Source of the DNA: Candidatus Kerfeldbacteria bacterium
GTDB taxonomy: Bacteria > Patescibacteriota > Patescibacteriia > UBA9570 > XYC2-FULL-38-9
Length of the DNA: 64,000 nucleotides
Direction of reading: 5' to 3'
Assembly (NCBI GenBank): GCA_016182555.1
Contig: JACPGJ010000004.1
Span: 14,751 to 78,750, forward strand
In this document: in pieces, positions 16,123 to 43,780 of the stretch
Layout of the letters: every line of letters begins with the position of its first letter
How positions within the stretch are numbered: position 1 is the stretch's first letter
Notes under the pieces: model-generated
Seen by the model: the letters and a program-made list of their open reading frames with translations, nothing else
What the model was told of the DNA's origin: nothing
Database searches by the model: none
Position numbers and translations under genes: made by a program

Positions 16123-16205
16123 GGCAAGCAACCGATGGTAGGTGGACAACCACGAAGCCGGAATAATTTTTTTGAGTACCGCTTTCACAATAAATATGTT
16201 ACCGA

Positions 16206-16670
16206 CTATTTTGTGCTCTTTGTTTTCCTGGCAACGGCATCGGATTCTGATGCAGTAAATAATGGCCCAATGACATGTAAAAGAAGTGCGATGAAGGCCG
16301 TGCCAAAAATAGCGACCATATACCATTGCGTCGCCACCGCCATACCAATCGCGGCACATACCCATAACCCCGCTGCCGTCGTAAGACCACGTACGCGTTC
16401 ATTACGAAAAATAATGACCCCCGCGCCGATAAACCCAATACCGGTGACAACTTCGGACATAATACGAGACGGATCGATAATCATCGTGGGTGACGTGAAC
16501 TGAACCAGCGCATGTAAGGCGATGAGCGTGAACAATGCTGAACCAAATGCAACCAGTGCATGCGTGCGCACTCCCGCTTCTTTATGGTGCGTTTCTCGTT
16601 CAAATCCAATCACCCCACCCAATGCCGCTGCCAAGATTAACTGTCCTAATACAATGAATTGAATATTCAT
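16206..16670 (-). CDS. MgtC/SapB family membrane protein
   Basis: 154 aa. The N-terminal region GGVIGFERE...AGVRTHALVAFGSALF is the MgtC signature. Confidence 0.85.
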   Translation of the reverse strand: MNIQFIVLGQLILAAALGGVIGFERETHHKEAGVRTHALVAFGSALFTLIALHALVQFTSPTMIIDPSRIMSEVVTGIGFIGAGVIIFRNERVRGLTTAAGLWVCAAIGMAVATQWYMVAIFGTAFIALLLHVIGPLFTASESDAVARKTKSTK

Positions 16671-20381: not shown

Positions 20382-23313
20382 TGGGACCGGTGAAACCACC
20401 GAACGGGAAAAGTGTTTTTTCTAAAATACCGCCTGTCGCATTAAATACTTGAATCGTCGCTTGGCGGTCACCATTACTACCAACCACAATACGGTCGCTC
20501 CCAATTTGCGAAATATTTCCGGCCGCAATCGTACCGCCTCCGGTATAGGTTTGCACAAAACCGAAGAACCCTGGTTGCACCAACCGTGCATGACCATTGG
20601 CATTCATTCGGAATCGTTGCACAAGCACCTTTCCATTTACTGGTGTCGTCACCATATCTTCTTGCGCACTCCCACTACGCGCGACAGATGCCAAACGAAT
20701 ACCATCTTGCCCGAGATTATTTTCATACGGAGTAAATCGATCGAGTAATTTGCCAGTACTTGAAAAAATAAACACTTGCCCATGCCCACCCGCATCTTGT
20801 GCTACGGCAATTTCATCAGAACCAATGCCATCCCAATTGACCGCGGTAATAAATGCGCCAGTCAATAGTGAACGATCAAAGGCAAAAAAAGAATCTTGTT
20901 TTTTCCCATCTGCGTCAAACAGTCGCACTTCCGCTGGCCGTCCCGGCCCAGGTACGGTCGCGATTTCATCAATACCATCCGCATCAAAATCACCCACGGC
21001 AACACGCACTCCACCAGTGAATAATTTTTCATACGCGTTAAAATGAGCCACTTCACGGCCACTAGCTTCAAATATTTTCACGGTCGGGACACCACTCCCA
21101 GCCGCAGTCATCACTTCATCATGCAAATCACCATCTGTGTCACCTACGGCTGTTTCCATACGCGTCATACTTCCCGGTGCAAATGGTTGAAATGTTTTTT
21201 CGTACGTATTCGATTTTATGTTATACACGCGCACCGTCGGCACATCGTTATAGACGCTAGAAATCACCAAGCGTTCACGGGGTGTAAAGCGAATCGTTTT
21301 CTTTTTTGACACAGCAGTGTTGTCTAAATCATCCACCGCTTGAACTTGGTAGAGATATCGAGCGCCTGGTTTTACTTTTTTATCAATAAACGCTTTCTTC
21401 GGTTGCTTGACCGTGGCAATACGACGTAATGGTTCAACGGCACTCAGATGTGAATCATTATCGCGTTTCACAACACGAGTACGCAATACACGATACTGCG
21501 TAACATGTTCATTCCGTACCTTTGCCCATGAAACTTTCACACCATTACTGGTTTTCTGCAATGTCACCTGCTGTGGTTTTGCCACGCTCGTATCGATAAT
21601 ATAGGTCAATGCTGCAGCTGAATTTGAACGATTGCCCACACCATCTTCTGCCACAACACGCAGATAATATTGTACTTGATCACCGGAAATTTCTTCCGGT
21701 GAAAACGTCGTGCCCGTTTGAAATGTCCCTTTATTCACTGGCTTCGCATGTTGATCTTTTCCAAAATACACATAATACCCTGCAATACCATCATCATCCG
21801 AAACAGCAGACCAGGTAAAATACGGCGTGGTCTCGCTGCTACGTGTGTTTTGTTTGATTGCAGTCTTCTTCTTGCTGTCTATATACGCTTTCATATTGCT
21901 TGGCGCATCTGGGTTGTCGGCAAGAGCAATCCCCTCTACCGCAGCGGCCGCATCTACACGACCAGTGCCGTACGCACTACCCATATCTATATCATCAGCA
22001 GTGAGAGTAATAACGTCATGCAATTCGCTGATGCTCAGTGTCGGATCTTGCGATAATAATAACGTAGCCACGCCACTCACCACGGGTGTTGCCATAGATG
22101 TCCCTGATAGTTCTCCATACAAATTATCAAATCCATATCCATTATCATCGCTATAAAAAGTGGAATAAATATATTCACCGGGCGCCGCAACATCAACACA
22201 TGCATCGCCATAATTTGAAAAAGTAGATGCTTCTCCTGCTTCAGATGTCGATGCCACACCAATGACTTGCGGATAACAGATCGGGTAAAATTCGTTCTGG
22301 TTAATATTCACTCCATCGTTGCCAGCAGCGGCAATCACCGCTACACCGTGATCAATGGCGTAATTCACTCCTTCTTCTAAAACATCTGTTGAACCATATC
22401 CTCCCAAACTCATGTGTACAATGTTTGCCCCATTATCAACAGCATATTGAATACCGGCCGCAATCGCACTATCGGTTCCAGCACCTTCATCATCGAGTAC
22501 TTGCACAGCCATAAGAGAAGCATGCCACGCGACACCACTCAGACCAACACCGTTATCACCAACAGCGGCCACAATTCCTGCCACGTGTGTACCATGAGTG
22601 ACGCCCGTATCAGCACCCGCATAACCGTCGTTATCACGACCATCTGGTGACGGACTAGGATTACCATTATCATCCACAAAATCGTATCCATTCACATCAT
22701 CGACATAGCCATTCCCATCATCATCAATATCATTATCAGGAATTTCTCCATCATTCACCCACAAATTGTCGGCAATATCCGGGTGATCGGTATCGACGCC
22801 GGTATCGATAATCGCCACAACCACATTACGTGAACCTGTTTGCGTATCCCAAGCCTCAGCGGCGTTAATTCCTCCAGCCGCCGCTTCTTGCAAATGCCAC
22901 TGATCGGAAAAATTGGGGTCATCGGGGAGTACCGTGATATGACGAAGCTGATCTTGTTGAACATTCGCAATACCTGGAGTGTGTTGTAATTCTTTCATCA
23001 GCTGTGCACGGGCATCTACATTTTCGGCCGTCACTGTAATAAATGTCTTCCCATTGAGTTGGGTAATCTGGTCTGCATGCTGAACAATGGTGCGGTACAG
23101 TGCCAGGTTATGTGCGGCAAGCGCTGCCACACCAAAGGCAGATGGCCGATATTCAATAACCAACGTATTGGTGATATCTGTGGCAGGCAGGGTAGACCCT
23201 TCGGTTTTGGCATAGCTGGTAGCTGGTAAAAATAAAAAAACAAGCAGCAGTAGGCATGCTCGAAAAATCAAAATATGCTTTATTTGTGTTAAAAAAGAAG
23301 ATAACCTCCTCAT
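20353..23313 (-). CDS. Secreted subtilisin-like S8 serine peptidase with FN3 and C-terminal FG-GAP/VCBS-like repeats
   Basis: 986 aa. It has a signal peptide and the S8 catalytic triad motifs (AIIDTGVD, HGTHVAG, GTSMATP). The C-terminus carries repeated DFDADG/NWDGIGSDE beta-propeller motifs. Confidence 0.85.
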   Translation of the reverse strand: MRRLSSFLTQIKHILIFRACLLLLVFLFLPATSYAKTEGSTLPATDITNTLVIEYRPSAFGVAALAAHNLALYRTIVQHADQITQLNGKTFITVTAENVDARAQLMKELQHTPGIANVQQDQLRHITVLPDDPNFSDQWHLQEAAAGGINAAEAWDTQTGSRNVVVAIIDTGVDTDHPDIADNLWVNDGEIPDNDIDDDGNGYVDDVNGYDFVDDNGNPSPSPDGRDNDGYAGADTGVTHGTHVAGIVAAVGDNGVGLSGVAWHASLMAVQVLDDEGAGTDSAIAAGIQYAVDNGANIVHMSLGGYGSTDVLEEGVNYAIDHGVAVIAAAGNDGVNINQNEFYPICYPQVIGVASTSEAGEASTFSNYGDACVDVAAPGEYIYSTFYSDDNGYGFDNLYGELSGTSMATPVVSGVATLLLSQDPTLSISELHDVITLTADDIDMGSAYGTGRVDAAAAVEGIALADNPDAPSNMKAYIDSKKKTAIKQNTRSSETTPYFTWSAVSDDDGIAGYYVYFGKDQHAKPVNKGTFQTGTTFSPEEISGDQVQYYLRVVAEDGVGNRSNSAAALTYIIDTSVAKPQQVTLQKTSNGVKVSWAKVRNEHVTQYRVLRTRVVKRDNDSHLSAVEPLRRIATVKQPKKAFIDKKVKPGARYLYQVQAVDDLDNTAVSKKKTIRFTPRERLVISSVYNDVPTVRVYNIKSNTYEKTFQPFAPGSMTRMETAVGDTDGDLHDEVMTAAGSGVPTVKIFEASGREVAHFNAYEKLFTGGVRVAVGDFDADGIDEIATVPGPGRPAEVRLFDADGKKQDSFFAFDRSLLTGAFITAVNWDGIGSDEIAVAQDAGGHGQVFIFSSTGKLLDRFTPYENNLGQDGIRLASVARSGSAQEDMVTTPVNGKVLVQRFRMNANGHARLVQPGFFGFVQTYTGGGTIAAGNISQIGSDRIVVGSNGDRQATIQVFNATGGILEKTLFPFGGFTGPITVASGWVY

Positions 23314-27116: not shown

Positions 27117-27899
27117 TTACCACTCAACGTTTTCAAGAAAAGACGGGAACCCCTCTACGCGGTCTGTATCCGCTGGTGAAAATAAGAATGGTTGAACATC
27201 TTGCGCTAAATCACCAAAATCTAATGTGCGGCAGTGTGCAAGTAATCGCTCTTTCACCTGTTGTGGCTCACCAGTACCAATCTTTTCTTCCAGATAGGCA
27301 TAGCTTGGTTTTGTGCGCGCACTTAAAAATACGATATCAAAAAAATCTCTTCCTTTTGCACGCTTTCGTTCAAGCGCAGCAAGAATTTTTTGTGCTAATA
27401 GTAAATCGAGCGGTGTCACAAAAATTTGTGCAAATATATCAAATTTATTGATCTCTTTTTGATCTGGTGTATATACAAAATGGTGTGGTGCGGAATCAAT
27501 TTGAATGAGAATTTTTTCTTCTGTCTTTTCTGAGAGTTGATTATCGAATAATACTCGTGGGAATTTCATATAACAACGGTAAGCACCTTTTGCGATATGG
27601 CGCATTTCAACAATATACCCTTCCAATTCCAAATCGCGTTTTACTAACTGCGCAATCTCTTGAAAATCGTGTTCACTTAATCCAAAATGATCAAAGTCCA
27701 AATCTTCGGAGAAGCGAGTATTGTTGTACACAATGCGAAGAGCCGTACCGCCAAGAAATGACAACTGACGAGCGTATGGTGAGCGAAAAATACTGCGCAA
27801 TATTTTGTATTGCATGTATTCGCGCAATATGTGGCGCTTGAATTGACGCAAGTGCGGTGGATATTGTTGCTCAATTTCGGTGATGTTCAGCATAATCAA
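27117..27899 (-). CDS. AbiEii/AbiGii-family nucleotidyltransferase toxin (type IV toxin-antitoxin)
   Basis: FLGGTALRIVYNNTRFSEDLDFD is the AbiEii signature. 260 aa. Confidence 0.8.
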   Translation of the reverse strand: MIMLNITEIEQQYPPHLRQFKRHILREYMQYKILRSIFRSPYARQLSFLGGTALRIVYNNTRFSEDLDFDHFGLSEHDFQEIAQLVKRDLELEGYIVEMRHIAKGAYRCYMKFPRVLFDNQLSEKTEEKILIQIDSAPHHFVYTPDQKEINKFDIFAQIFVTPLDLLLAQKILAALERKRAKGRDFFDIVFLSARTKPSYAYLEEKIGTGEPQQVKERLLAHCRTLDFGDLAQDVQPFLFSPADTDRVEGFPSFLENVEW

Positions 27900-28506
27900 T
27901 AGATGTTAAAAAATGATGTATACGTTTTTCAAGCGCTGGACTATGAAATTCTTCAAGATAGCGAAATAATTTTTGACTATCTATGCTCTCTGTGCATTCT
28001 TGTTCATTAAAACGCATGCCTTCCATGTCTTCGAGCGTATTCAGATGCGAATGAATGTAGAAATAATCAAGGATTGTTTTTTCTGGTTCAGCCATGCGTA
28101 TGGTTCGTCCGTGATATTGCGCTAAATGATAGCCAAAAAATAACGCTGGTTTGATTGTGTGATAAAAAAAAGTTGTATGTAATGCATTCCGTAGTGTCGC
28201 TGTTTTTTTTGTTGTCGCAGACGTAATGCTATAGACTCCTTCCGGAATAAAACCATAATACGACAAGGCGCTTTCAAAAGAAACATAGGAGGGTGAATAG
28301 ACGGTATTGGCAATAAAAAAGAGGGTTTGTTCGTTCAATGGCAAGTCAGAAAAAATATAATACCCTCGAGCCACCCGCTGAATATAGCCTTTTTTGAACC
28401 ATTGCGTTAACTGCTTCTTGTCAAAATTTGGCTCAAGTAAGCGAATATCTGCAATAGAAAACACACCATATTTCTGAAATTTTTCCTTAAATTGAATATA
28501 ATTCAT
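27871..28506 (-). CDS. AbiEi-family antitoxin/transcriptional regulator
   Basis: 211 aa. It has an N-terminal wHTH-like region (LTQWFKKGYIQRVARGYY). It overlaps the downstream toxin gene by 29 nt, which is the classic AbiEi-AbiEii arrangement. Confidence 0.7.
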   Translation of the reverse strand: MNYIQFKEKFQKYGVFSIADIRLLEPNFDKKQLTQWFKKGYIQRVARGYYIFSDLPLNEQTLFFIANTVYSPSYVSFESALSYYGFIPEGVYSITSATTKKTATLRNALHTTFFYHTIKPALFFGYHLAQYHGRTIRMAEPEKTILDYFYIHSHLNTLEDMEGMRFNEQECTESIDSQKLFRYLEEFHSPALEKRIHHFLTSIDYAEHHRN

Positions 28507-29344: not shown

Positions 29345-30310
29345 CTATTGTTTCTCTTCTACTAATGAACGAAAATATTCTGCATAGCTGTGTAAAATAG
29401 CCGTACGCTGTGTAGCAAATTCATCAGGCCAGTAAATATCAATGCCATTACTTAATTCTATAAGCTTTGGCTTTCCTTTTTCATTAAAAAAGAAATCGAC
29501 CATAAATAGTTTATGCGGAAATAACGCAAAATGATTTTGTATTTTTTTAATAATCACCAGAATAGATTTTGGTATTTTTGCTATTGGCACAAGAATCATT
29601 TTACCATTCTGTTGTAGGTTACACAGCAGTTTTCCTGGCGCAGGAATACGCATATAGGAAATGATTATCGTATCATCAATGAGCACTACTCGAAAATCAT
29701 GCGTACCAATGTACAGATTCGGCACTCCGGCACGCGTATCGATGAATTCTTGCACAATCGAAGGAACACTCACCTGCACTGTAGCGGTTTGTGAACGTAA
29801 AACAATTTGGATACCCTTCCCACCAGAACCAAAACGCGGTTTTACGACTATGCGTGTTGTACGAATTTTTTTTGCTGCTGCCTGTAACTCTTGTGCATTA
29901 TTCACTGGAATAGTTTGTGGGACATCATCCGGAAATAACAGCGGAACAAAAATTTTATCTGAAGTGATGAGTTGTAATTCCACGGGGTTAATAACTGTCG
30001 TATACGCTTCAAGTCGTTGAATATCTGCTAAAAATTCGTAAGATATTCGTGTTTTATCGTGTACAATATCAGGTTGAATAGAACGATGTATTTTATTCCA
30101 TTGACCTTTTTTGAATTCCCAATATTTTGTAAACTGCTTTCCATCAAACCAACTCAAACACACCCGTACCATACGCACATGGTAATCTTTATCCGCGATA
30201 TTATACAATTCTTCATAACATTTACGTTGTAATGTATTGCTAAATGGATGTTCTTTATGCCAATCACTTCCTAAAAATAGCATGGCGACAACTGGCTTCT
30301 TTTTGCGCAT
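29345..30310 (-). CDS. ATP-grasp ligase, paralog 1 of 3
   Basis: VVKPRFGSGGKGIQIV, HDFRVVLI and DFFF...LIELSNG are ATP-grasp motifs. Its N-terminal domain is shared with paralogs 2 and 3. Confidence 0.7.
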   Translation of the reverse strand: MRKKKPVVAMLFLGSDWHKEHPFSNTLQRKCYEELYNIADKDYHVRMVRVCLSWFDGKQFTKYWEFKKGQWNKIHRSIQPDIVHDKTRISYEFLADIQRLEAYTTVINPVELQLITSDKIFVPLLFPDDVPQTIPVNNAQELQAAAKKIRTTRIVVKPRFGSGGKGIQIVLRSQTATVQVSVPSIVQEFIDTRAGVPNLYIGTHDFRVVLIDDTIIISYMRIPAPGKLLCNLQQNGKMILVPIAKIPKSILVIIKKIQNHFALFPHKLFMVDFFFNEKGKPKLIELSNGIDIYWPDEFATQRTAILHSYAEYFRSLVEEKQ

Positions 30311-30389
30311 AGACGTATAAAGTAAAATCTTAAAATGTGGCTAATGTTACTATAGCACACTCTCGAGATCTATATGACAAAAAATAGCT

Positions 30390-31364
30390 CTACTTCACTT
30401 TGAATGTTTTTTGCTCTATCAACTCTGTAAAATACTGTAAATACGTATGTGCAAGATAATAAAATTCTTTATCAAATTCCTTTGGCCAATAAATATTAAT
30501 ACCGGTATTCATTTCAATAAGCAATGGTTTATTTTTAAAAAAGAAAAAATCAATCATGAAAATGGCATGAGGGAATATAGAAAAACGGTTTTGAATTATT
30601 TGAACCGATGATCGCACAGATGATGGCAATTGATTCAAACGTAACCGCACTAATTCTGCACCCTGTGAAACATTGCACAATAGCTGATTTGTTTTTGCCG
30701 CACGAATATACGTGAGTACCACCCTTCCTCCAACCACAATACATCGTAAATCATGGATACCTTTGTACACACCAGGGATACCGGCTCGCGAATTAATAAA
30801 AGACTGAACAATCATGTGTGGACCAATTCGAAGCGTAGCAATATCGTGGCGATCTACAATTTGAATACCCAGCCCACTGTGACCAAAACGAGGTTTCACA
30901 ATAATTTTTTTTGTGGGTATTTTTTTCACTGCCAGCACTAAATCGTGCTCGGTATTAACGGCATAGGTTGGTGGCACCAGGTCGGGAAAAGCAATCGCAG
31001 GAAATAATTTATCTGAAATTTGCATTTCTAATTCCCACGGATTCACCACAAGAAATCGTTCACACATACTTTGCAACAGCGGTAGTGCTTCATATCGAAA
31101 TGAAGCTTTATTGTGAATCAAGTCAGGCACAATAGCTTTATTCATTTTTTTCCATTTTCCATGAGTGAATGTCCAATATTTTTTAAATGCTTTACCATCA
31201 AACCATTCTATAGCCACACGAATGCATTGAATATCATATTCATTATTAGCCAATGTATAAAAATCTTCATAACGCTTGCGTTGAAGTTCGTTAGAAAATG
31301 GTTGAGACTTCTCCCAATCACTCCCTGCATATAGTAGTGCAACAATATAACGATTCTTTTTCAT
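30390..31364 (-). CDS. ATP-grasp ligase, paralog 2 of 3
   Basis: IVKPRFGHSGLGIQIV, HDLRCIVV and DFFFF...LIEMNTG. Its N-terminus (LLYAGSDWEKSQPFSNELQRKRYEDFY) aligns with paralogs 1 and 3. Confidence 0.7.
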   Translation of the reverse strand: MKKNRYIVALLYAGSDWEKSQPFSNELQRKRYEDFYTLANNEYDIQCIRVAIEWFDGKAFKKYWTFTHGKWKKMNKAIVPDLIHNKASFRYEALPLLQSMCERFLVVNPWELEMQISDKLFPAIAFPDLVPPTYAVNTEHDLVLAVKKIPTKKIIVKPRFGHSGLGIQIVDRHDIATLRIGPHMIVQSFINSRAGIPGVYKGIHDLRCIVVGGRVVLTYIRAAKTNQLLCNVSQGAELVRLRLNQLPSSVRSSVQIIQNRFSIFPHAIFMIDFFFFKNKPLLIEMNTGINIYWPKEFDKEFYYLAHTYLQYFTELIEQKTFKVK

Positions 31365-31367
31365 AAT

Positions 31368-32237
31368 TTATTTCGTCATATGCTCATTCACAAGCTTCGA
31401 GAGTGCTTCTGTATCTGGAATCCAATAATATAGCTCCTTGCCAAAAGCTGGTGTATATATCTTCCCGCTTGCACCCGGTACAGAAGCTTCAACAATATCA
31501 CCAGTGGAAAAATGGCCATTCCGTGCAATACCAGCGCCCACGGCAAAACGAATCGATTGCAGTTGCGAATACCGTAACCGTGCTTGATTTGAATCTTCAA
31601 AATATTGCAGTAGCATGCGCATCTTCGTTGGAGTGACTGCTTTCATCACTAAAGAGCGCAATACTTCACGTTCATCGGCTTGTCGATTAAAATCTGAACG
31701 ACCATTGGTAAAGCGATCGCGAATAATTGCCAAGGCTGCAGCACCGTTTGTTGTCGTGCCGTCGACTGTTGTTCCGCCCAAATTATTCACAATCTCTTCA
31801 AAACTTCTGAATGTCACTTCAACCGTGGTGTCTATATGCATACTAATCAGCGTTTCAACCTGCTGTTGAGTAAGTTCGATGTTGCCCAACTCTTTCCCGT
31901 CATCTGGTCGTTCACCAAATGCATAAAAATGAGTGATTTTTTGCAATCCCCACTCCTGGTCATCAATTTTCGTATCACGAGGAATGCTCAATAAAAATAT
32001 TGGCTGTTTTGGATTTTTTGGAATAGACAACAAAAACAAAACATCTGATCGTGCACGCTCCGTACCACGTTGATCTGAACCAACAAACAAGATCGTATAA
32101 CGCTCCGGCGCAGTAATATAAACAAAAAAGAGAGTAGAAATAATAAGAATACACATCGTGAACAGAAATCCAAACAGAAATGCATTCACCCTCTTCATAC
32201 TAGGCAACAAGTGTTGAAAAATAACGTAAATATGCAT
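31368..32237 (-). CDS. LytR-CpsA-Psr (LCP) family cell-envelope phosphotransferase
   Basis: It has an N-terminal TM helix. FVGSDQRG...RSDVLFLLSIP...SIPRDT is the LCP core. Confidence 0.8.
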   Translation of the reverse strand: MHIYVIFQHLLPSMKRVNAFLFGFLFTMCILIISTLFFVYITAPERYTILFVGSDQRGTERARSDVLFLLSIPKNPKQPIFLLSIPRDTKIDDQEWGLQKITHFYAFGERPDDGKELGNIELTQQQVETLISMHIDTTVEVTFRSFEEIVNNLGGTTVDGTTTNGAAALAIIRDRFTNGRSDFNRQADEREVLRSLVMKAVTPTKMRMLLQYFEDSNQARLRYSQLQSIRFAVGAGIARNGHFSTGDIVEASVPGASGKIYTPAFGKELYYWIPDTEALSKLVNEHMTK

Positions 32238-33153
32238 GATATAATTTCGTTCGATTTTTCAGAAATTCTGGTGGGAAGAAAAAATCTGCCTTGGCGTTCA
32301 ATTCAACAATGAGTGGTCGACCGTTAGTAAAGAAAAAATCTGCTGTATACACTTTATAAGGAAACAAAGAAAGAGATTTTTGAATTGAGCGAATGATTGG
32401 AAAAACTGTTTTGGGAATTTCGGATATGGAAATAAACCGTGCCCCACCCTGTTGGGACATATTACATAATAATGTTCCAGGAGCAGGGGTACGAATATAG
32501 GCACCAATGATTTTTTCTCCTGTAAAAAGCATCCGCAAATCATGGATAGATGGATAGACATTGGGAATACCTTTCTGCGTATCAATGAATTCTTGCACAA
32601 TAATTGGAAATCGAATCTGTTTCTCACGAATTGCTGACTTTGCAGCGATAATAATTCCCGCACCACCTAAACCAATGCGCGGTTTAATCACTACTTTTTT
32701 TCCAGGAACACGCCGCAGTGCAGCACGTAACTCTTCTGAAGTGTTAGCATGTGTTGTATACGGAATATATTGTGGAAAAAGAATAGGTAAAAATAATTTA
32801 TCACTGACTAACAATTCTAATTCCCAGGGATTCACCAGCACATACTGTGTGGCGATTTCTTTTTTCACTGGAATCGTTTCATATGCAAATGCGGATTTAT
32901 CTAAAATAATATCTGGAATAATAGAACGTGTTATTTTTTGCCAACGTTTATTTTTATATGCCCAAAATTGTCGAAAAGACTTACCCTGAAACCAATCAAT
33001 GCATACACGCACAATGGTCATCTGATATTCTTTTTCAGCCAATGCGTACAACTGTTCATAACATTCGCGCTGAATGCTATTTGTAAAAGGTATTTTTTTT
33101 CGCGCGTCATCGCCTGAATACAGGATAGCGAGAATTTTATTTTTCATAGGCAT
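32200..33153 (-). CDS. ATP-grasp ligase, paralog 3 of 3
   Basis: VVIKPRIGLGGAGIIIA, HDLRMLF and DFFF...LIVELNA. Its N-terminus (ILYSGDDARKKIPFTNSIQRECYEQLY) aligns with paralogs 1 and 2. Confidence 0.7.
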   Translation of the reverse strand: MPMKNKILAILYSGDDARKKIPFTNSIQRECYEQLYALAEKEYQMTIVRVCIDWFQGKSFRQFWAYKNKRWQKITRSIIPDIILDKSAFAYETIPVKKEIATQYVLVNPWELELLVSDKLFLPILFPQYIPYTTHANTSEELRAALRRVPGKKVVIKPRIGLGGAGIIIAAKSAIREKQIRFPIIVQEFIDTQKGIPNVYPSIHDLRMLFTGEKIIGAYIRTPAPGTLLCNMSQQGGARFISISEIPKTVFPIIRSIQKSLSLFPYKVYTADFFFTNGRPLIVELNAKADFFFPPEFLKNRTKLYHAYLRYFSTLVA

Positions 33154-34164
33154 TTATTTATTCATCCACGCTTGAATGAGTAATCGTTTGACATTGACCC
33201 CCTGCCCTTCCACTATCGGTTTTTCATGAATAGCGTAATCTGGATTATTATTCATTTCAATAACAGCGTAGCATTGTTTTGGATTATTCGATGTAATATC
33301 TTCAGTCACTAAATCGATACCAACAAAATCTACCCCTAACGTACGAGCACTATCAATCGCTACTTTTTTAAATCGAGCACTGATACGATCCGTATAATCT
33401 ATTGCTCGCCCACCCTGACTAATGTTTGCCACAGCACGTACTTGCACCTGTTGACCTTTCGGTAATATGGATGAGAGCTTGAGAGAACACCGCTTGAGTG
33501 TCGCTCGCACTTCTGCATCGACGATCAATTGAAAAGCATCTGGGCGATCCTGATTCAATGCAAAAATCAATTCATGAATGGAAGACGTGCCGTCTCCAAT
33601 CAATGTTGCTGGAATTCGCATGACACAAGCAATCACTTTGCCCCGCAATACCAACACACGATGATCATTGCCAGGAACCATCTCCTCAATTAAACAATGT
33701 CGCGGATGTTCTGGGTTCAAGCTTTGCTTTTTTGTATAGAGGCTCAAAACAGCATTCATCGCGGCTTGTAATTCGGAATTATTTTTTATATTGAGATGTA
33801 CCCCCATTCCCTTCCATAAATCAATCGGCTTCACGACGACAGGAAATTTGAGATGTGCTTTTTTTCTTTGCTGAACCGCTTCTTGGGGCGTCGTTGCTGT
33901 GGTCCCTTTTGGCGTAGAAATACCCTGTCGAGAGAGCAACATTTTTGTTAACTCTTTGTTGATCGTAAAATAACTATTGGGTTGAGTATTAAAAAATAAT
34001 TCTTCATTATATAAATACGCTTTTTTTCCTTTGTAACTCAGCTCAATTAAACGAAATTGCTCTGCAATAAAACGCATCTTTACTCCCATCTGCTGCATTT
34101 CCATGCACAGGTTTTTTTTATACGGATGTTCCAGTGAGTTAATATATCTGTTTATTGCGTTCAT
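33154..34164 (-). CDS. ATP-grasp ligase (RimK/GshB-like, a subfamily distinct from paralogs 1-3)
   Basis: 336 aa. VVVKPIDLWKGMGVHL, GNDHRVLVL and DFVGIDLV...VIEMNNNP. The start codon directly abuts the stop of the upstream ORF. Confidence 0.7.
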   Translation of the reverse strand: MNAINRYINSLEHPYKKNLCMEMQQMGVKMRFIAEQFRLIELSYKGKKAYLYNEELFFNTQPNSYFTINKELTKMLLSRQGISTPKGTTATTPQEAVQQRKKAHLKFPVVVKPIDLWKGMGVHLNIKNNSELQAAMNAVLSLYTKKQSLNPEHPRHCLIEEMVPGNDHRVLVLRGKVIACVMRIPATLIGDGTSSIHELIFALNQDRPDAFQLIVDAEVRATLKRCSLKLSSILPKGQQVQVRAVANISQGGRAIDYTDRISARFKKVAIDSARTLGVDFVGIDLVTEDITSNNPKQCYAVIEMNNNPDYAIHEKPIVEGQGVNVKRLLIQAWMNK

Positions 34165-34175
34165 AATACTATAGA

Positions 34176-35147
34176 CTATTCAGTTATAGACGCTCGAGAT
34201 AAATCTGGACCGGAGAAGAATGTAGCTCCTGTAAAAAATAGAAGAATCAGCAACGCATACGTATGGCTTTCAATAGCTCTATACTCTGCGTCTGTTTCTA
34301 GTGTTTCAAAAGATATGTAGTCATCAACAACACTCTGTAGCATTGCCCACGCTTCTGCATACTGAACCTCAAAATGACATAATTTCATACATAATGCAAC
34401 TTCAATAAGTGTATCGATATCGGTGCGCTGGCGGATTTCTTCAATATGATTCGCGAAATACATGATGATCCATTCGTATTGCCCAGGTAAATCGTGCTCA
34501 TAATACTGAGTATCCGCCAAAATAATATGGGTCATGCTATATATCACGGAATGATATTCGTCATCCGTGAGGTCCGCGACTAATTCATCACTGGCGTTAA
34601 AATAGATCTTTCGAAATAGCTGCTGTGCTTCTTCGAATAATGCTGAAGAAACGTGAATGTGTTTGAGAAAGGCTAACGTGTTGAATGTAAAAGAACTATT
34701 ATACCGAATCGCCTCTTCATTGATATACAGCGTTCTCAGCTCATCGAGAGACAATTGGGAAAGGAGTTGCGGATATTGCTGCGCATACATTGTCATATGC
34801 AATCCATATTTCTGTATAAAAAAAAGATGGTGGATAAAACGATCAAAAAATTGTAACTTGGGTTGCTGTTGATACAGGTCTTCTCTTTTTTTTCTGCGTT
34901 CACTGAATTTTTTATAATAATAATGACGCGTATAGGAAAACTGACCAGTTTTCAATAGCGCCAAATCAGCAACAATTCGCGGTTGCTTCACCAAAAAAAA
35001 ATAAAACGCGATAATTTTTTTATACTGCTCTTCACCGGTCACCTTATATGCTCGATAGGCAAAATGCGCCAGGTTATCTAGAGGAAGTGATGCACAGTTT
35101 CTATTGTAGATATCCAGAATGCGTTTTGAAGAGATTGCGCTATGCAT
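34176..35147 (-). CDS. Hypothetical protein (alpha-helical) co-operonic with the ATP-grasp genes
   Basis: 323-aa ORF, 11-nt gap to the downstream ATP-grasp gene, 14-nt gap from xseB. Confidence 0.45.
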   Translation of the reverse strand: MHSAISSKRILDIYNRNCASLPLDNLAHFAYRAYKVTGEEQYKKIIAFYFFLVKQPRIVADLALLKTGQFSYTRHYYYKKFSERRKKREDLYQQQPKLQFFDRFIHHLFFIQKYGLHMTMYAQQYPQLLSQLSLDELRTLYINEEAIRYNSSFTFNTLAFLKHIHVSSALFEEAQQLFRKIYFNASDELVADLTDDEYHSVIYSMTHIILADTQYYEHDLPGQYEWIIMYFANHIEEIRQRTDIDTLIEVALCMKLCHFEVQYAEAWAMLQSVVDDYISFETLETDAEYRAIESHTYALLILLFFTGATFFSGPDLSRASITE

Positions 35148-35385: not shown

Positions 35386-36546
35386 TTATTTTTTGACAAT
35401 TGAACGCACTCTACCATCCAGCAACACCGTCGTCAATTCGTCACCAGTATGAGTAGCGGCTGCTGTTTTGAGTACGCGACCTTGAGCGTCAAGCGTAAGA
35501 CTGAAACCACGCTTGAGAATATGGCGTGGATTCAACGATTCAAGCAAACGGACAACATGATCAATCCGCTGCTGCTGTGATTGAATGCGGTTCGTGAACT
35601 GGTTGAACGCCTGGTCGAGACGACGTTCCATGGTTTGAAAAGTGGTAAGCTGTGTTCGTGTATAGACTTCGAGCGTATTCACCGCGTCATGTAAACGCTG
35701 TTGGTGGTTATAGACAGCTGATTCGAAAGAGCGTTCACAACGATTCAGCAGATGACCAATCTCTGCTGTGACGTCATCACGATGCGGCACAACAAGCTCA
35801 GCCGCGTTGGATGGCGTGGATGCACGAACATCAGCCGCCAAGTCAGCCAGAGTAATATCGCGTTCGTGGCCAACAGCGGAAACCACGGGAATAGTAGAAG
35901 CAAAAATCGCGCGCACCACCTCTTCGGTATTAAACGCTTGCAAATCTTCAAGCGAACCACCACCACGAGTAAGAATAAGCGCGTCCAGTTCGGGCATTTC
36001 TTCATTGAATGCCGCAAGCGCGGCCACAATACTATTTGCGGCGGCTGCGCCTTGCACCTGAGCGTTCACATGATAAATCTGCAATCCACTCCAACGATTA
36101 TTCAAAATGCGCAGCACGTCGGTATACGCCGCGGCGTCACGACTAGTCACCAGCCCAATGTGACGAGGGAAACGTGGGAGCGAGCGTTTACGGCTGTCAT
36201 CAAACAACCCTTCTTTGCTGAGTTTTGTTTTGAGTAACTCATACGCTTTTTGTAATGAGCCTTCACCAACAAGTTCAACGCTGCGTGGCTGAAAAACAAA
36301 TTGTCCCTTTTTGAACAATGTTGGCGAGCCGACAATGCGAACTTCCATCCCTTCTTCCAGCGGCACCTGCAGTTTGAACGCGAGCATAAAACATTTAAGC
36401 ACCGTTGAATCATCCACAATCGAAAACCAGACAAAGCGATTTTGGGAAATATGAAAATCGGAAATCTCTCCTTGGATCGCTACCGTTACTTGGCCAAGGA
36501 GTTCATTTATTTCGGTGCGGAATTCTGAAACAGTGTAGATGCGCAT
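35386..36546 (-). CDS. xseA: Exodeoxyribonuclease VII large subunit
   Basis: 386 aa. It has an N-terminal OB fold (VSEF...VWFSIVDD...KCF) and a conserved catalytic C-domain. Confidence 0.85.
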   Translation of the reverse strand: MRIYTVSEFRTEINELLGQVTVAIQGEISDFHISQNRFVWFSIVDDSTVLKCFMLAFKLQVPLEEGMEVRIVGSPTLFKKGQFVFQPRSVELVGEGSLQKAYELLKTKLSKEGLFDDSRKRSLPRFPRHIGLVTSRDAAAYTDVLRILNNRWSGLQIYHVNAQVQGAAAANSIVAALAAFNEEMPELDALILTRGGGSLEDLQAFNTEEVVRAIFASTIPVVSAVGHERDITLADLAADVRASTPSNAAELVVPHRDDVTAEIGHLLNRCERSFESAVYNHQQRLHDAVNTLEVYTRTQLTTFQTMERRLDQAFNQFTNRIQSQQQRIDHVVRLLESLNPRHILKRGFSLTLDAQGRVLKTAAATHTGDELTTVLLDGRVRSIVKK

Positions 36547-36785
36547 TAATATCCTGCCCCTACTTCAAACTGATAATTATCCAAACGTGAAATATAGTGT
36601 GCTTTTCCTGTATATGTTGAACGAATATACTGCTGTTTTCCACCTAATAACTCATTCCACTGCTGCACATTATTTGGATCGGCAAAAAATGCAGCGAACC
36701 CATCAACTGTTCCCTGGTCAACCGTATCAGCCCCAATAAATATGCGTTCTGCTCGATCAATATAACTTTTAGCGGAATACGCCAT
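36546..36785 (-). CDS. Small hypothetical protein translationally coupled to xseA
   Basis: 79-aa ORF. Its stop overlaps the xseA start in a TAATG arrangement. Its start overlaps the upstream HAD gene by 17 nt. Confidence 0.35.
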   Translation of the reverse strand: MAYSAKSYIDRAERIFIGADTVDQGTVDGFAAFFADPNNVQQWNELLGGKQQYIRSTYTGKAHYISRLDNYQFEVGAGY

Positions 36786-40042: not shown

Positions 40043-40630
40043 TTAGGTTGCATGAAATGTACGTAACGCTTGGCGAACCTGTTCTTCCACCGGCAATGTC
40101 GAGTCAATACCCTGTAATGCGGCCACGGCTTCAGACTGACTATACCCAAGTGCGAGTAACGCATCAATGGCATTCACTGTTGCACGTTCTGTACCCGCCA
40201 CCGAGGCGACACCGTCACTCGCCGCACCAGAAAACGCGACCTGTTCTTTTAAATCCAAAATCATTCGCTGTGCCGTCTTCTTCCCAATCCCGGAAATGCT
40301 CGTCAAAAATGTGGTATCACTATGAATAATAGCCCGCTTCACTTCGTCTGCTGAAAATTGCGACAAGACGGCTAACGCAATTTTTGGCCCCACGCCAGAA
40401 ACACTAATCAACTGCTCAAAAAACTGGCGGTCTTCTGCCACAGTAAATCCATACAAATCCAACGCGTCTTCACGAATATGTTGATACGTATATAATTCAA
40501 CCGCTGCACCAACAATTAACGATTCAGCAACACGCGAAGGAACACGAACACCATACCCAATACCCGCAACGAGCACAATCAGCTCATCTATATCCTTGGA
40601 ATGAAGCGTTCCAGTAATAAATCGAATCAT
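40043..40630 (-). CDS. ruvA: Holliday junction DNA helicase RuvA
   Basis: It has an N-terminal OB domain and an HhH domain (SGVGPKIALAVL...ISGIGKKTAQRMIL). Confidence 0.9.
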   Translation of the reverse strand: MIRFITGTLHSKDIDELIVLVAGIGYGVRVPSRVAESLIVGAAVELYTYQHIREDALDLYGFTVAEDRQFFEQLISVSGVGPKIALAVLSQFSADEVKRAIIHSDTTFLTSISGIGKKTAQRMILDLKEQVAFSGAASDGVASVAGTERATVNAIDALLALGYSQSEAVAALQGIDSTLPVEEQVRQALRTFHAT

Positions 40631-42105
40631 AGGGTTGTCATGGTTGGCGTCGCTGGTTTTGGAGTGCCATTCTTTTTTGCTGCGACTTTTTTGATAGAAC
40701 GCTTTGTGGGGTCAATCAAGAAACGAGTTAAATTCCTATTGCCAATGAGCAAAGGGTATTCTAACCGTGATCGATCGAAGACATTCGGTTCAATACTCAT
40801 TTTATGCCCCGCTAGGAAAATAGACAATGGAATATGAAAACGAATCGAGGCACCATGAGAAGAGTGCACTTTCGATATGCGGGCAATTTGTGGGTGGGCT
40901 TTGGGCAAACGTTGTTGCAAATCTTCTAATAACCGCTTGGCCTCTTCTTCACTTAATTCTTCCGGAATATGTTCTGCCGCGAATGCATCAATCGCGTCTC
41001 CGAAACCGAGTTCGCGAGCGAGCGCCATATCAATCGAACTATCGTCAGCTCCGGTATCAATTTTTGCTTTCACCTGTTTTTGCTTGTCTTCCACACCATA
41101 AACGGTCACCGACTCTACCAATCCCACCACCTGCCGACCCGTCACGCTTGTCACTTCAGCTTGAAAATGACCACCGAATAAATCTTTCGCAATTGTAATC
41201 CCATGTTCTGGGCTTTCAACACGCAATCCTTTAATACGATCCAAACGCTCACGCAAAGGAATCATGTTCGCCACTTGAATACCTAAACCTGGCCGCGCAT
41301 TTAATTCCAATACTACTGGCCCTTTTTTCTTATCGATCGAAATGTCCACCCGCGTGTACTTCAACTTTACCGATTGCGATGCGAGCACCGCTGTTTTCAA
41401 AATTTCTTCCCAATACGGAATACGCATACCGCGCAACAGTACATCATTATCTGGGTGACGTTCAATTTCTCTCTCTCCCCACCACGCCTTCATCACAACA
41501 TGTGTTGTTAAGCCGGTCGAGATATCAATACCGATTGCTAAGCCGCCTTGCATCAAATTTGCTTTTCCACCTGATTTTTTCGTGGGCACGCGAATAAAGG
41601 CCATCACCGGTACCAAATTATAGACAACCACACCAATATCTGGAATGCCGTATTCACCAAAACGTTTGAACAAGGGGTCAATGGATAAGCGTGATTCCAA
41701 AAAAGCAATATCGGGAGTGTTCAATAATGAATAATCACCGTCTAAAATGTCCGCTACATGCACCACAAAATCTTCTACCGTCAATTGCCGTTTATTGGTC
41801 GTTAGCCAATTTCCATTTTTCAATCGGTTGTAGACCACCACAATTCCTTCACCACCTAACCCACGGTTGGGTTTAATCACAAAACTGGAAGGTAGTGATT
41901 CCCAATCAAATTCACGCAATTCATGACGATTCCGAATGACGGCAATTAAATCAGCGGTAGGAATGCCGATGTTTTTCATACACGCTTTCGTCGCTAATTT
42001 ATCATCAGCGCGTTTGCGGGCAGATGGTTTATTCTCGCGCAGGTATATACTGCTGCGCGCATTGATACCAAGGACCGCTTTATGATTTTTCCACATGGCG
42101 CGCAT
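40627..42105 (-). CDS. Fusion protein: a RimK-like ATP-grasp ligase (ATPgrasp_ST type) joined to a retropepsin-like aspartic protease domain (so-called ATP-dependent zinc protease / RimB-like)
   Basis: 492 aa. The N-terminal domain has FVIKPNRGLGGEGIVVV...VLELNARPG. The C-terminal domain has IDTGADDSS (a DTG aspartyl protease motif). Confidence 0.7.
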   Translation of the reverse strand: MRAMWKNHKAVLGINARSSIYLRENKPSARKRADDKLATKACMKNIGIPTADLIAVIRNRHELREFDWESLPSSFVIKPNRGLGGEGIVVVYNRLKNGNWLTTNKRQLTVEDFVVHVADILDGDYSLLNTPDIAFLESRLSIDPLFKRFGEYGIPDIGVVVYNLVPVMAFIRVPTKKSGGKANLMQGGLAIGIDISTGLTTHVVMKAWWGEREIERHPDNDVLLRGMRIPYWEEILKTAVLASQSVKLKYTRVDISIDKKKGPVVLELNARPGLGIQVANMIPLRERLDRIKGLRVESPEHGITIAKDLFGGHFQAEVTSVTGRQVVGLVESVTVYGVEDKQKQVKAKIDTGADDSSIDMALARELGFGDAIDAFAAEHIPEELSEEEAKRLLEDLQQRLPKAHPQIARISKVHSSHGASIRFHIPLSIFLAGHKMSIEPNVFDRSRLEYPLLIGNRNLTRFLIDPTKRSIKKVAAKKNGTPKPATPTMTTL

Positions 42106-43780
42106 GTTTAAAAACGTTTCTAAAACGAATATATTCGACCAACCGCAAACCAGAAAATTTTCCGATAATGTAATTGAAGATCAACGTTAACAAAATGAGT
42201 TCCGGATAGGCAAGCAGCAAGGATTTAAATAATGTCCAATCTCCAATGAAATAACCCAACAACGATAACACCACTGTTTCAATCATCAGCTTGATCGCCG
42301 CTTTGTAGCCTTGTTCAATTTGCACCGAAACGAAATGTTCGGTCAGGACGGTCATAATGAGAATCGGGAAAATAGATATCGCGATGAAACCGGTTTTATG
42401 GAAATAGGCACCAACAAAAAAGAGCGCGAAAATAGCGAGGGCAATAATCGAGAGCACAATCGCCATACGTGGTAAATACAGCAAGCGAAATTTGCGTGCG
42501 AAAATACGCGATAATGTTCCCACCGCGACAACCACAAAAAATACGGTCAAGCCATATTTCAAACCAGTGGACAAAAATGACAATGCAATAACCGTTGGCG
42601 CAAAAATACCGAATGCTTTAATCCCGACTAGCTGGCGTGCGGTCGCAATAATCGTCGCCATCACCGGCAACATGAGAATCAAGAAGAGTGAGTTGATTGG
42701 CACACCGCGGTGGATCATAAAATTCATCGCGTAGGACATGAAATTCAGTGGAGTGAGGCGATCAAATCCACGAGCCGTATACGCACTAATAATTTGGTAC
42801 TCCGCCCGGACCTGCGATAATCGATCTTCCAACCGGCTCGATGTGCCCGCAGCGACCACGTCATCTAAAATATCGTTCGTCGACACCACAATAAATTTCG
42901 GTTGGACCACTTGAAATGCGCGCTGGGCACTTTTGATACTCGACACACGCGGTTGATTATTCACCGCCACAATCGCTTTGGAATCAAAATCGAAACGGTC
43001 AACAGCGGTGTTGCTCAGCGTAGAAATTTGCGATAAGGCGATAAGAGAGTTCAACCCAACATCACCAGAGGTCCAGGTGATAATAATATCTGATGCAATA
43101 AGATCTTCTTCACTTTTCAATAATTGCTGGGCAATATTTTGGACCGTCAAATATTCTTGATCTACGCCAGAATCACGAATGGGAATGACCAATGTTCCGC
43201 GGGTGAGTCCATAATCTTGTAACCGCTGAATCTCTTTTTCTGGCACACTCTGGTCAGAAATCAAAATCACTAGGTGTTCTTGAACAGACACGGTAATACT
43301 ATCTTCACTCGTCTGCGCATCTGCGCCTTCTCCAGTGGTCACCTGCAGTACCACTTTATACGTACCCGCTGATTTATACGCATGGGTTGCATCAATGCCT
43401 TTTGCGCTGGTGTTATCTCCAAAATCCCAGTGATAAAACAATGCGGCTCCTTCTGGCCCCGTCGATGCCGATGCATCAAACAACACCGTGCGACCAATGG
43501 CCACATTTCGATCTTTTCCCGCTTTTGCTTTCAGCAGCGTTTCCTCCACAATGACTTCTGGTATTGACTCTGAAGGGGGCGTTATTTCTTCACCAGTTTG
43601 CTGGTCTGTCGGCGTTGCTGATTCCTGAGCATGAACGTTTACTGGAATGAAGAGAAAGAACAAGGTGAATATGCTCAAGGATAGTATCGCTCGCGAAGCC
43701 CCCGAGAGCAAAAAAGCCCGATGCCTATGAGGGCTTTTTGCGTATGGGGTAGCGAGCACGCAGTTTCTATACATAATCAT
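42080..43780 (-). CDS. Membrane protein with signal peptide, extracellular PKD domain and a C-terminal polytopic (about 7 TM) domain of the type associated with ATP-grasp/retropepsin systems
   Basis: 566 aa. The PKD-like segment is FDASASTGPEGAALFYHWDFGDNTSAKG...YKVVLQVTT. Six or seven hydrophobic helices lie between residues 360 and 560. It overlaps the downstream fusion gene by 26 nt. Confidence 0.65.
   Translation of the reverse strand: MIMYRNCVLATPYAKSPHRHRAFLLSGASRAILSLSIFTLFFLFIPVNVHAQESATPTDQQTGEEITPPSESIPEVIVEETLLKAKAGKDRNVAIGRTVLFDASASTGPEGAALFYHWDFGDNTSAKGIDATHAYKSAGTYKVVLQVTTGEGADAQTSEDSITVSVQEHLVILISDQSVPEKEIQRLQDYGLTRGTLVIPIRDSGVDQEYLTVQNIAQQLLKSEEDLIASDIIITWTSGDVGLNSLIALSQISTLSNTAVDRFDFDSKAIVAVNNQPRVSSIKSAQRAFQVVQPKFIVVSTNDILDDVVAAGTSSRLEDRLSQVRAEYQIISAYTARGFDRLTPLNFMSYAMNFMIHRGVPINSLFLILMLPVMATIIATARQLVGIKAFGIFAPTVIALSFLSTGLKYGLTVFFVVVAVGTLSRIFARKFRLLYLPRMAIVLSIIALAIFALFFVGAYFHKTGFIAISIFPILIMTVLTEHFVSVQIEQGYKAAIKLMIETVVLSLLGYFIGDWTLFKSLLLAYPELILLTLIFNYIIGKFSGLRLVEYIRFRNVFKHARHVEKS

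Follow-up and report, generated by a model that had tools for sequence, protein, structure and literature searches.

An ATP-grasp ligase array in a Kerfeldbacteria genome as a candidate accessory cassette of a Patescibacterial Rlo-like system

Introduction

In this article, I discuss an array of six genes in a genome of Candidatus Kerfeldbacteria, a member of the Patescibacteria, and its resemblance to the Rlo system of Proteobacteria. The closest described systems are RloABC of Pseudomonas aeruginosa and the RimK-RimB pair, which is related to it. In RloABC, stretches of eight or more glutamates are cut by the retropepsins RloA1-3, which are secreted, and the loss of all three RloA proteins causes osmotic, morphological, antibiotic-resistance and biofilm defects that are rescued by deletion of rloB or rloC; 96% of RloB matches were reported in Proteobacteria (PMC12239564, mBio 2025). 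The DNA considered here, which I will call the window, is a stretch of 64,000 nucleotides (positions 14,751 to 78,750 of contig JACPGJ010000004.1, assembly GCA_016182555.1), and the array occupies positions 29345-35147 of it, where the ORF list of the window holds six closely spaced open reading frames (ORFs), all on the minus strand and all where a preliminary description, made from the DNA letters and their translations, had placed them (Table 1). Three of them encode ATP-grasp ligase paralogs of 317-324 aa, for which I use the name PAR (PAR-A, PAR-B and PAR-C), and the others encode a fourth ATP-grasp ligase, an LCP (LytR-CpsA-Psr) phosphotransferase and a DUF3541 protein.

Studied members of the clades to which the ligases are related (LysX/ArgX, GshB, RimK) add an amino acid to a peptide, carrier-protein or cofactor carboxylate, and the G domain of cyanophycin synthetase extends a peptide at its C-terminus. 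Patescibacteria, for their part, live as episymbionts and little is known of their surface chemistry. Putting the ligases beside their genomic partners, I give about even odds (roughly 50%) to the reading that the array belongs to an Rlo-like amidoligase system of Patescibacteria as its accessory cassette, here expanded and displaced from the usual site, and that the ligases of the array build an acidic peptide on an acceptor destined for the cell envelope.

Rlo-like partners of the PAR ligases

Between ruvC and ruvA, 5.5 kb upstream of the array, the window carries a pair of genes for an RloB-like membrane protein and for a fusion of an RloC-like ligase to an RloA-like peptidase (hereafter RloCA). 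The membrane protein matches the Pfam models 7TM_transglut (3e-32, 112.5 bits against 25) and PKD_4 (7e-22), a PKD plus 7TM architecture that it has in common with two related loci (L086 and L088), and no transglutaminase domain was detected in it by the Pfam scan. RloCA matches ATPgrasp_ST (2e-57, 195 bits against 31.4), Zn_protease (2.3e-11), the RloA models (8e-10) and TIGR02291 (3.3e-72, 243 bits against a cut-off of 314), with the peptidase domain at about residues 319-470 and a DTGA motif at residue 350. Judged by these domain matches, the window pair is probably a Patescibacterial version of the Pseudomonas RloABC system.

Wider comparison places the PARs next to such pairs. A motif scan of metagenomes gave 80 loci (cited here by L numbers), which were compared with the window proteins by tblastn and ORF clustering; RloCA lies directly upstream of the first PAR in 31 of the 47 loci having at least 1.5 kb of upstream sequence and anywhere in the locus in 36 of the 47, fractions that are biased towards one PAR subclade because the scan motif is typical of it. 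The usual order is YebC-RuvC-RloB (7TM)-RloCA, then one to four PARs, optional genes and a class A penicillin-binding protein (PBP1A), followed on the opposite strand by DciA, DnaN and DnaA, and the PAR position conserved in Patescibacteria is the one between ruvC with the Rlo-like genes and PBP1A/dnaA. The optional genes encode ligases resembling the fourth ligase of the window (CphG-like, see below), YdjC, a MATCAP-family metallopeptidase, a GT2 glycosyltransferase with an uncharacterised protein, a methyltransferase or DUF3541. PBP1A is a neighbor in 36 loci, the MATCAP-family metallopeptidase stands beside ATP-grasp ligases in 10 loci (cluster c12) as well as in L087 and L088, and RloB in many Patescibacteria loci is about 217 aa long and aligns with the window protein in its 7TM part alone. 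The recurrent partners of the ligases are peptidases (retropepsin, MATCAP) and envelope enzymes (7TM, PBP1A, LCP, YdjC, GT2), and no conserved carrier, target or precursor ORF of at least 60 aa was found in the cassettes. This recurrent neighborhood indicates that the PAR family is an accessory of the RloB/RloC-RloA-like system.

The number of PAR ORFs differs between loci: 46 loci have one, 22 have two, 14 have three and a single locus has four. Several loci have PARs of separate old clades at positions 1, 2 and 3, in the same order each time, which suggests distinct roles rather than redundancy.

The PAR family

PAR-A, PAR-B and PAR-C are 40-45% identical to one another over their full length (PAR-A/PAR-B 40%, PAR-B/PAR-C 45%, PAR-C to the other two 44-45%), so the description of three close ATP-grasp paralogs of about 320 aa stands, and PAR-B and PAR-C reach 598-599 bits with the profile of the paralogs, a resemblance that, as sequence comparisons go, is far beyond chance. 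Known models are matched weakly (RimK, GSH-S_ATP, MptN and ATPgrasp_ST, E 1e-5 to 1e-11). The PARs pass the thresholds of the Pfam GSH-S_ATP domain and of the Pfam RimK domain (gathering score 21; PAR-A 28.4, PAR-B 34.5, PAR-C 23.7 bits) but miss that of the NCBIfam RimK family TIGR00768 (cut-off 143.4 bits; PAR-A 24.8, PAR-B 37.3, PAR-C 36.1), and hence carry the domain without being members of the curated family. Against GshB they score 22-35 bits for a curated cut-off of 272-299, the NCBIfam scan gave no Ddl match for any of them, and none of the curated NCBIfam family cut-offs was reached. A housekeeping RimK, GshB or Ddl identity was rejected for the PARs because these cut-offs are so far from being reached; in the window, moreover, their neighborhood holds no rpsF gene and no S6, LysW or glutathione context.

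An AlphaFold2 (AF2) model of PAR-B, made with a 60-sequence alignment, has a pLDDT of 96.3, and its top Foldseek matches are LysX/ArgX, GshB and RimK, aligned end to end at 13-17% identity and TM scores of 0.6-0.78 (for RimK, 5zct/7qyr, E about 1e-13), with the graspetide macrocyclases PsnB and MdnB also listed at lower rank. On the strength of this model the PARs are intact ATP-grasp enzymes with all three domains, and their structural type is that of RimK, LysX and GshB. The consensus by which the preliminary description had set their N-terminal domain apart as distinctive is present in all three proteins, but since the model superposes over its whole length on these enzymes, the region is an ordinary ATP-grasp N-domain. 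Among 60 family members, the catalytic columns K119, K157, D205, R221, N231, D272 and E284 do not vary, and PAR-A keeps its catalytic Lys/Asp/Arg/Asn/Glu columns; in PAR-C, near residue 286, a Ser replaces the Mg-binding Asn (ELN to ELS-N) that at least 90% of the family has, and catalysis by this copy may be altered or reduced.

Searched with a profile of the three PARs, 1.84 billion representative proteins yielded 1,059 matches at E <= 1e-3 and 256 at E <= 1e-30, which at 50% identity amount to a family of about 1,000 clusters, most members being 300-330 aa long. A few members are tandem double-PAR fusions of 640-648 aa (P0003, 640 aa, at 5010-6932 of L087; P0008, 648 aa, at 8001-9947 of L091), and the one in L087 sits right after RloB and RloC and ahead of YdjC, MATCAP and PBP1A. 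Named relatives come from Kerfeldbacteria, Moranbacteria and 'Patescibacteria group' bins, and PAR-B itself stands at NCBI as HYV32_01245, a hypothetical protein of Candidatus Kerfeldbacteria. On profile evidence, the PARs define a large, unnamed Patescibacterial ATP-grasp family for which neither Pfam nor NCBIfam has a model. Literature searches on the PAR family, on Candidate Phyla Radiation with ATP-grasp and on DUF1704/MATCAP with ATP-grasp found nothing, word-indexed homolog searches with PAR-B and with the 60-sequence alignment returned essentially the query alone, and scans of GTDB species representatives, with two N-domain peptide patterns and with a degenerate DNA pattern encoding Q-x-[FY]-[IVL]-D-x3-G-[IV]-x7-H-D-[LF]-R, gave no PAR relative, the patterns being possibly too narrow. 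The sole match of the GTDB scans, in Hyphomicrobium (L005), was set aside as a chance match. Remoter PAR relatives (about 30% identity), possibly of other lineages, occur in L068, L069, L074, L077, L079 and L082, beside methyltransferases and small membrane proteins and with no Rlo genes.

The LCP gene and cassette turnover

The protein encoded between PAR-A and PAR-B, previously taken for an LCP-family transferase embedded among the paralogs, scores 69.5 bits with Pfam LytR_cpsA_psr (gathering score 24.6) and 61.0 bits with TIGR00350, slightly under the cut-off of 62.3. It matches TagU and Lmo1026 of the PDB at about 1e-15, its RSD, SIPRD and R.R..GRSDF.R motifs align with Lmo1026 (3nro), and its translation has a hydrophobic segment, FLFGFLFTMCILIISTLFFVYI, as an N-terminal membrane anchor. 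By domain, Arg/Asp motifs and predicted anchor alike, the array LCP is a genuine LCP transferase. Its start is probably the ATG at 32198 (Met14 of the ORF), which lies 1 nt past the PAR-A stop codon and matches the point, residue 14, at which the alignment of the L002 homolog begins, and in L086 and L088 the overlap of the two genes is 4 nt; the 38-nt overlap reported between them in the window is probably an artefact of choosing the longest ORF, and the other spacings reported for the array are as listed (in transcription order 11, 0, -38, 3 and 79 nt).

PAR and LCP genes are adjacent in five Kerfeldbacteria-type loci (the window, L002, L042/43, L086 and L088/89), with the LCP gene overlapping the PAR gene by 4 nt in L086 and L088, and the PAR that directly precedes the LCP gene in L002, L086 and L088 has 42%, 39% and 39% identity, respectively, with PAR-A. 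The linkage is limited to loci of this type and not general to the PAR family.

Four further loci, L042/43, L086 (GCA_043813585.1), L088/89 and the short L002, have the backbone of the window, RloB-RloCA-RuvA-FemAB-NTP-transferase-CofD-HAD-small ORF-XseA, then a variable portion, then LCP-PD-(D/E)XK nuclease-RNase H-like exonuclease-LexA. From XseA to the nuclease, the window reads XseB, DUF3541, CphG-like, PAR-A, LCP, PAR-B, PAR-C; L042 reads CphG-like, PAR, XseB, PAR, a 93-aa CphG-like fragment, LCP; L086 reads CphG-like, XseB, a 289-aa ATP-grasp protein, PAR, LCP; and L088 reads FemAB_like (a weak Pfam match), a 255-aa protein, XseB, PAR, LCP, MATCAP. Between window and L042 the flanking genes are 55-74% identical and the ligases 28-33%. 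While xseA and xseB are adjacent in the window, with the cassette after them, they are split by ligase or FemAB_like genes in L042 (4293-7491), L086 (7819-9982) and L088 (8096-9995), and in L042 the 93-aa ORF just upstream of the LCP gene (7497-7778), which falls in the CphG-like cluster c6, appears to be a decayed ligase remnant, in line with cassette turnover. What alone stays constant in these cassettes is the direct coupling of a PAR to the LCP gene; ligase content that differs from genome to genome within conserved flanks points to fast turnover of the cassette with the PAR-LCP link kept. On this comparison, PAR-B and PAR-C downstream of the LCP gene are a lineage-specific addition and the triple array is one state of a changing cassette. 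The preliminary description had named two outcomes that would speak against it, a confident assignment of the paralogs to a well-characterised housekeeping ATP-grasp family and the absence of the arrangement from related genomes, and neither is what was found: none of the ligases reaches such a cut-off in the profile scans, and the compared neighborhoods hold PAR-LCP in the five loci and CphG-PAR and DUF3541-CphG in others.

Several other genes were noted around the cassettes. An AbiEii/AbiEi toxin-antitoxin pair (27117-28506, GC 0.36-0.40) lies in the window between the Cas4-like PD-(D/E)XK nuclease and the RNase H-like exonuclease, and as it is missing from this position in L042, L086 and L088 it is a recent insertion. 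A gene for an AAA_14/DUF4143 ATPase (16810-17934) has kin (cluster c14) in or near the cassettes of L008, L053 and L040 and looks like a mobile or selfish gene favoring variable regions. An S8 subtilase with Fn3 (986 aa, 20353-23313) and a Mur-ligase-family gene (14875-16365) are both also found downstream of the cassette in L086 and contribute further envelope-related context.

The CphG-like ligase and DUF3541

The fourth ligase was previously called RimK/GshB-like; it is indeed an ATP-grasp enzyme, but it stands nearer to the G domain of the cyanophycin synthetase CphA1 and the C-terminal domain of GshAB. It aligns with positions 214-469 of the NCBIfam cyanophycin synthetase model (5e-58, 196 bits, the full-length cut-off being at least 850), with region 438-747 of GshAB (4.5e-47, far under the full-length cut-off) and with PDB entry 7lg5 (7.5e-34), it also resembles Ngg ligase, and against the Ddl models it scores 33-41 bits for cut-offs of about 243. 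Based on these alignments, the protein is best seen as a homolog, standing on its own, of the CphA1 G domain and the GshAB C-terminal domain. Within its 336 aa the G region alone aligned, the Mur-ligase-like M domain and the CphA N domain being unmatched; lacking the M domain, it is not a cyanophycin synthetase and cannot make cyanophycin by the known mechanism, and that identity was rejected on the absence of M and N domains and on the bit score. CphG-like genes (cluster c6) stand beside PAR genes in 22 of 84 loci.

DUF3541 has homologs in L029 (PAR-DUF3541-CphG-PBP1A) and L067 (DUF3541-CphG-PAR). For this protein a single-sequence structure model reached a pLDDT of 48 and was discarded, a PDB profile search gave noise alone, the word-indexed homolog search returned essentially the query, and a literature search found nothing.

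Layout of the array

The co-directional run that the preliminary description followed from the array into the FemAB, NTP-transferase and CofD-YvcK genes is real, with xseB, xseA, a 79-aa ORF and a HAD hydrolase gene interposed. That ORF (36546-36785, minus strand), which lies between the HAD gene and xseA, has no family match; L042, L086 and L088 carry an unannotated ORF of 84-93 aa at its position, at most a putative homolog, as the one in L042 clusters apart (c74 as against c315). The array DNA was also recovered in a Logan contig. A promoter and terminator scan of 28-37 kb gave sites no more numerous than in shuffled sequence and hence no operon boundaries. The PAR genes have a GC content of 0.36-0.37 (0.28-0.30 at third codon positions), as against 0.415 for the embedded LCP gene and 0.43-0.49 for the flanking genes, a composition that suggests either acquisition from a lower-GC relative or different constraints.

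Table 1. Positions in the window of the array genes and of the Rlo-like pair.
Feature	Position	Strand	Length and main match
RloB-like membrane protein	42080-43780	minus	566 aa; PKD domain and 7TM_transglut module
RloC-RloA-like fusion (RloCA)	40627-42105	minus	492 aa; ATPgrasp_ST ligase and C-terminal retropepsin-like peptidase
DUF3541 protein	34176-35147	minus	323 aa; all-helical; Pfam DUF3541, E 6.6e-20
CphG-like stand-alone ATP-grasp ligase	33154-34164	minus	336 aa; NCBIfam and PDB matches
PAR-A, ATP-grasp ligase, LCP-coupled copy	32200-33153	minus	317 aa; weak RimK/GSH-S_ATP matches
LCP (LytR-CpsA-Psr) phosphotransferase	31368-32198 likely (longest ORF 31368-32237)	minus	289 aa (longest ORF); Pfam LytR_cpsA_psr, 4.5e-19
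PAR-B, ATP-grasp ligase paralog	30390-31364	minus	324 aa; full-length Foldseek matches
PAR-C, ATP-grasp ligase paralog	29345-30310	minus	321 aa; alignment with PAR-A and PAR-B

What the cassette may make

If the array is an accessory cassette of the Rlo-like pair, each ligase would turn a carboxylate into an acyl-phosphate and then add the amino group of an amino acid, and the set of ligases would build or extend, step by step, a short and probably acidic peptide at a C-terminus or on a side-chain carboxylate. The acceptor would end in the cell envelope, being either a precursor or polymer of the wall that is linked to a lipid, or a peptide that the RloB-like membrane protein handles; the LCP of Kerfeldbacteria would then transfer the lipid-linked carrier to peptidoglycan. 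The chain so built would be trimmed by the retropepsin domain and, in sister loci, by the MATCAP carboxypeptidase. How long the peptide is and what it is composed of would depend on how many PAR genes there are and of which type, and rapid turnover of the cassette would diversify it between strains. The stepwise addition of amino acids to an envelope component, as first proposed from the letters of the window, fits the retropepsin, MATCAP, PBP1A and LCP context and the FemAB_like protein, another kind of peptide-bond former (again, by a weak Pfam match), that occupies the CphG-like slot in L088. The isoelectric points (pI) of the PARs, the CphG-like ligase and RloCA, 9.5-9.8 as against 5-8 for housekeeping neighbors, are weak evidence in the same direction, as they would suit a substrate of acidic nature, for example poly-Glu, which RloA cleaves.

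A number of points weigh on the other side. Every chemical step is drawn from homology; 5.5 kb of unrelated genes (ruvA, femAB-like, NTP-transferase, cofD-like, HAD, xseAB) part the array from RloB and RloCA; and co-directional strings are common in Patescibacteria, which makes adjacency weaker evidence than in other bacteria. The 31/47 figure is skewed by its subclade-typical scan motif, PAR relatives occur without Rlo genes in L090, L091 and L068-L082, and the LCP linkage belongs to Kerfeldbacteria-type loci only. LCP enzymes, besides, transfer glycopolymers and not peptides, PAR-C is without the conserved Mg-binding Asn, and the high pI may partly come from Lys-rich, low-GC genes.

In a competing proposal, the PARs would join amino acids to carboxyls not of a peptide but of acidic sugars (uronic acids or others) within a wall polysaccharide that is lipid-linked and that the LCP then attaches to peptidoglycan. 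ATP-grasp enzymes amidating glucuronate are known in capsule synthesis, the PAR-LCP coupling in five loci is tight, sugar enzymes (YdjC, GT2, NTP-transferase, Wzy_C) lie in or beside the cassettes, and the partner ligase belongs to what Pfam calls 'sugar-transfer associated ATP-grasp'. I nevertheless regard this as rather unlikely, given that the nearest structures all act on peptide or carrier-protein carboxylates, that the recurrent retropepsin and MATCAP carboxypeptidase partners act on peptide bonds, and that an LCP or glycosyltransferase is absent from most PAR loci. Peptidoglycan tailoring, with amino acids added to the stem-peptide carboxylates of UDP-MurNAc-peptide or lipid II in the manner of the enterococcal ATP-grasp D-aspartate ligase and alongside a FemAB-like transferase, would yield uncommon side chains or cross-bridges; it would draw on PBP1A in its 36 loci, on FemAB and the weakly matched FemAB_like protein that replaces the CphG-like ligase in L088, on the Mur ligase at 14875-16365 and on a published hypothesis linking Rlo to peptidoglycan homeostasis (PMC12239564). 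It too is unlikely: no test ties the PARs to the Mur or Ddl family, with no Ddl match, PBP1A beside dnaA/dnaN may just reflect conserved near-origin synteny, and the ligase to which the retropepsin domain is fused is predicted to be cytoplasmic.

That same fusion, which leaves the retropepsin without a separate secretion signal and recalls the cytoplasmic RimB, speaks for a product that stays in the cytoplasm, be it a tail added to the C-terminus of a protein, as by RimK, or an oligopeptide in solution such as poly-Glu, a glutathione-like compound or an NAGGN-like osmolyte, with the envelope genes as accidental neighbors. Homology to GshB, RimK and Ngg ligase and the osmotic phenotypes of Rlo mutants point the same way, but the 7TM membrane protein is associated consistently across loci, a PAR is translationally coupled to a membrane-anchored LCP, and the cassettes hold no conserved carrier or target ORF of at least 60 aa, and I consider a cytoplasmic product improbable indeed. 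As for a graspetide-type ribosomally synthesised and post-translationally modified peptide (RiPP) or an anti-phage defence cassette, PsnB and MdnB do appear lower in the Foldseek list, and the array lies in a low-GC variable region beside the AbiE pair and a Cas4-like nuclease. The array, however, has no space for a precursor gene, its gaps being at most 11 nt save for one of 79 nt, PADLOC matches none of the six array proteins, RloB or RloCA, and of the two suggestive neighbors the nuclease is a conserved syntenic one in sister genomes and the AbiE pair an insertion absent there; with no precursor gene and no PADLOC match, this explanation is essentially excluded.

An extension of the accessory-cassette reading would make the cassette a template-free assembly line, in which the PAR and CphG-like ligases (one to four or more per locus, sometimes fused) specify, by how many they are and by their order and subtype, a defined oligopeptide on an envelope precursor; RloB would export or organise this peptide, the LCP of Kerfeldbacteria would anchor it to peptidoglycan, and retropepsin and MATCAP would edit it. 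Taken as a whole this is a speculative and unlikely proposal; were it true, rapid cassette replacement between sister genomes would create a hypervariable determinant of the cell surface, a peptide-based analog of O-antigen loci, and the product of RloBC in Pseudomonas and Vibrio would be revealed as well.

Comparison with known systems

If the ligases do decorate the envelope with variable peptides, they would be a new piece of Patescibacterial surface biology, and the finding extends the poorly understood and clinically relevant Rlo system to a distant phylum while offering a testable route to its product. The LCP resembles TagTUV and Cps2A in its domain, membrane anchor and Arg/Asp motifs, but at about 276 aa it is a short protein, and its gene is coupled to that of an ATP-grasp ligase instead of teichoic-acid or capsule genes. 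Graspetide and microviridin ligases differ in that the array has no adjacent precursor-peptide gene. The ATP-grasp ligases beside a MATCAP metallopeptidase (the c12 loci, L087 and L088) recall the cycle of tubulin tyrosine ligase and MATCAP, although the PAR context is bacterial and the window itself has no MATCAP gene. With the G domain of CphA1 (about 214-469) and the GshAB C-terminus (438-747) the 336-aa ligase aligns at E 1e-34 to 1e-58, yet it stands alone, without the N and Mur-ligase-like M domains of CphA1. The PARs have in common with the RimK/LysX-ArgX/GshB clade the full-length three-domain fold, the ATP and Mg residues and a length of about 300 aa, and depart from it in their 13-17% identity, in NCBIfam scores far under the cut-offs and in lacking an S6, LysW or glutathione context.

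With RloABC, finally, the window has in common that three elements are encoded together: a ligase that matches ATPgrasp_ST and, below the cut-off, TIGR02291, a 7TM_transglut protein, and a peptidase of retropepsin-like kind in which a DTG motif is present. The genetics of P. aeruginosa indicate that the ligase and the membrane protein make something that the peptidase must trim. In the window, the ligase carries the peptidase as a C-terminal fusion, whereas Pseudomonas RloA is separate and secreted with a signal peptide; the window RloB has PKD and no transglutaminase domain detected, whereas Pseudomonas RloB is 7TM plus an inactive transglutaminase; and Patescibacteria add one to four PARs plus CphG-like, MATCAP, YdjC and DUF3541 genes to what in Pseudomonas is an operon of three. 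I class the array with the ATP-grasp amidoligase systems of the RimK/Rlo type, and because the Patescibacterial version is richer in genes, comparison of its accessory genes may help to identify the Rlo product.

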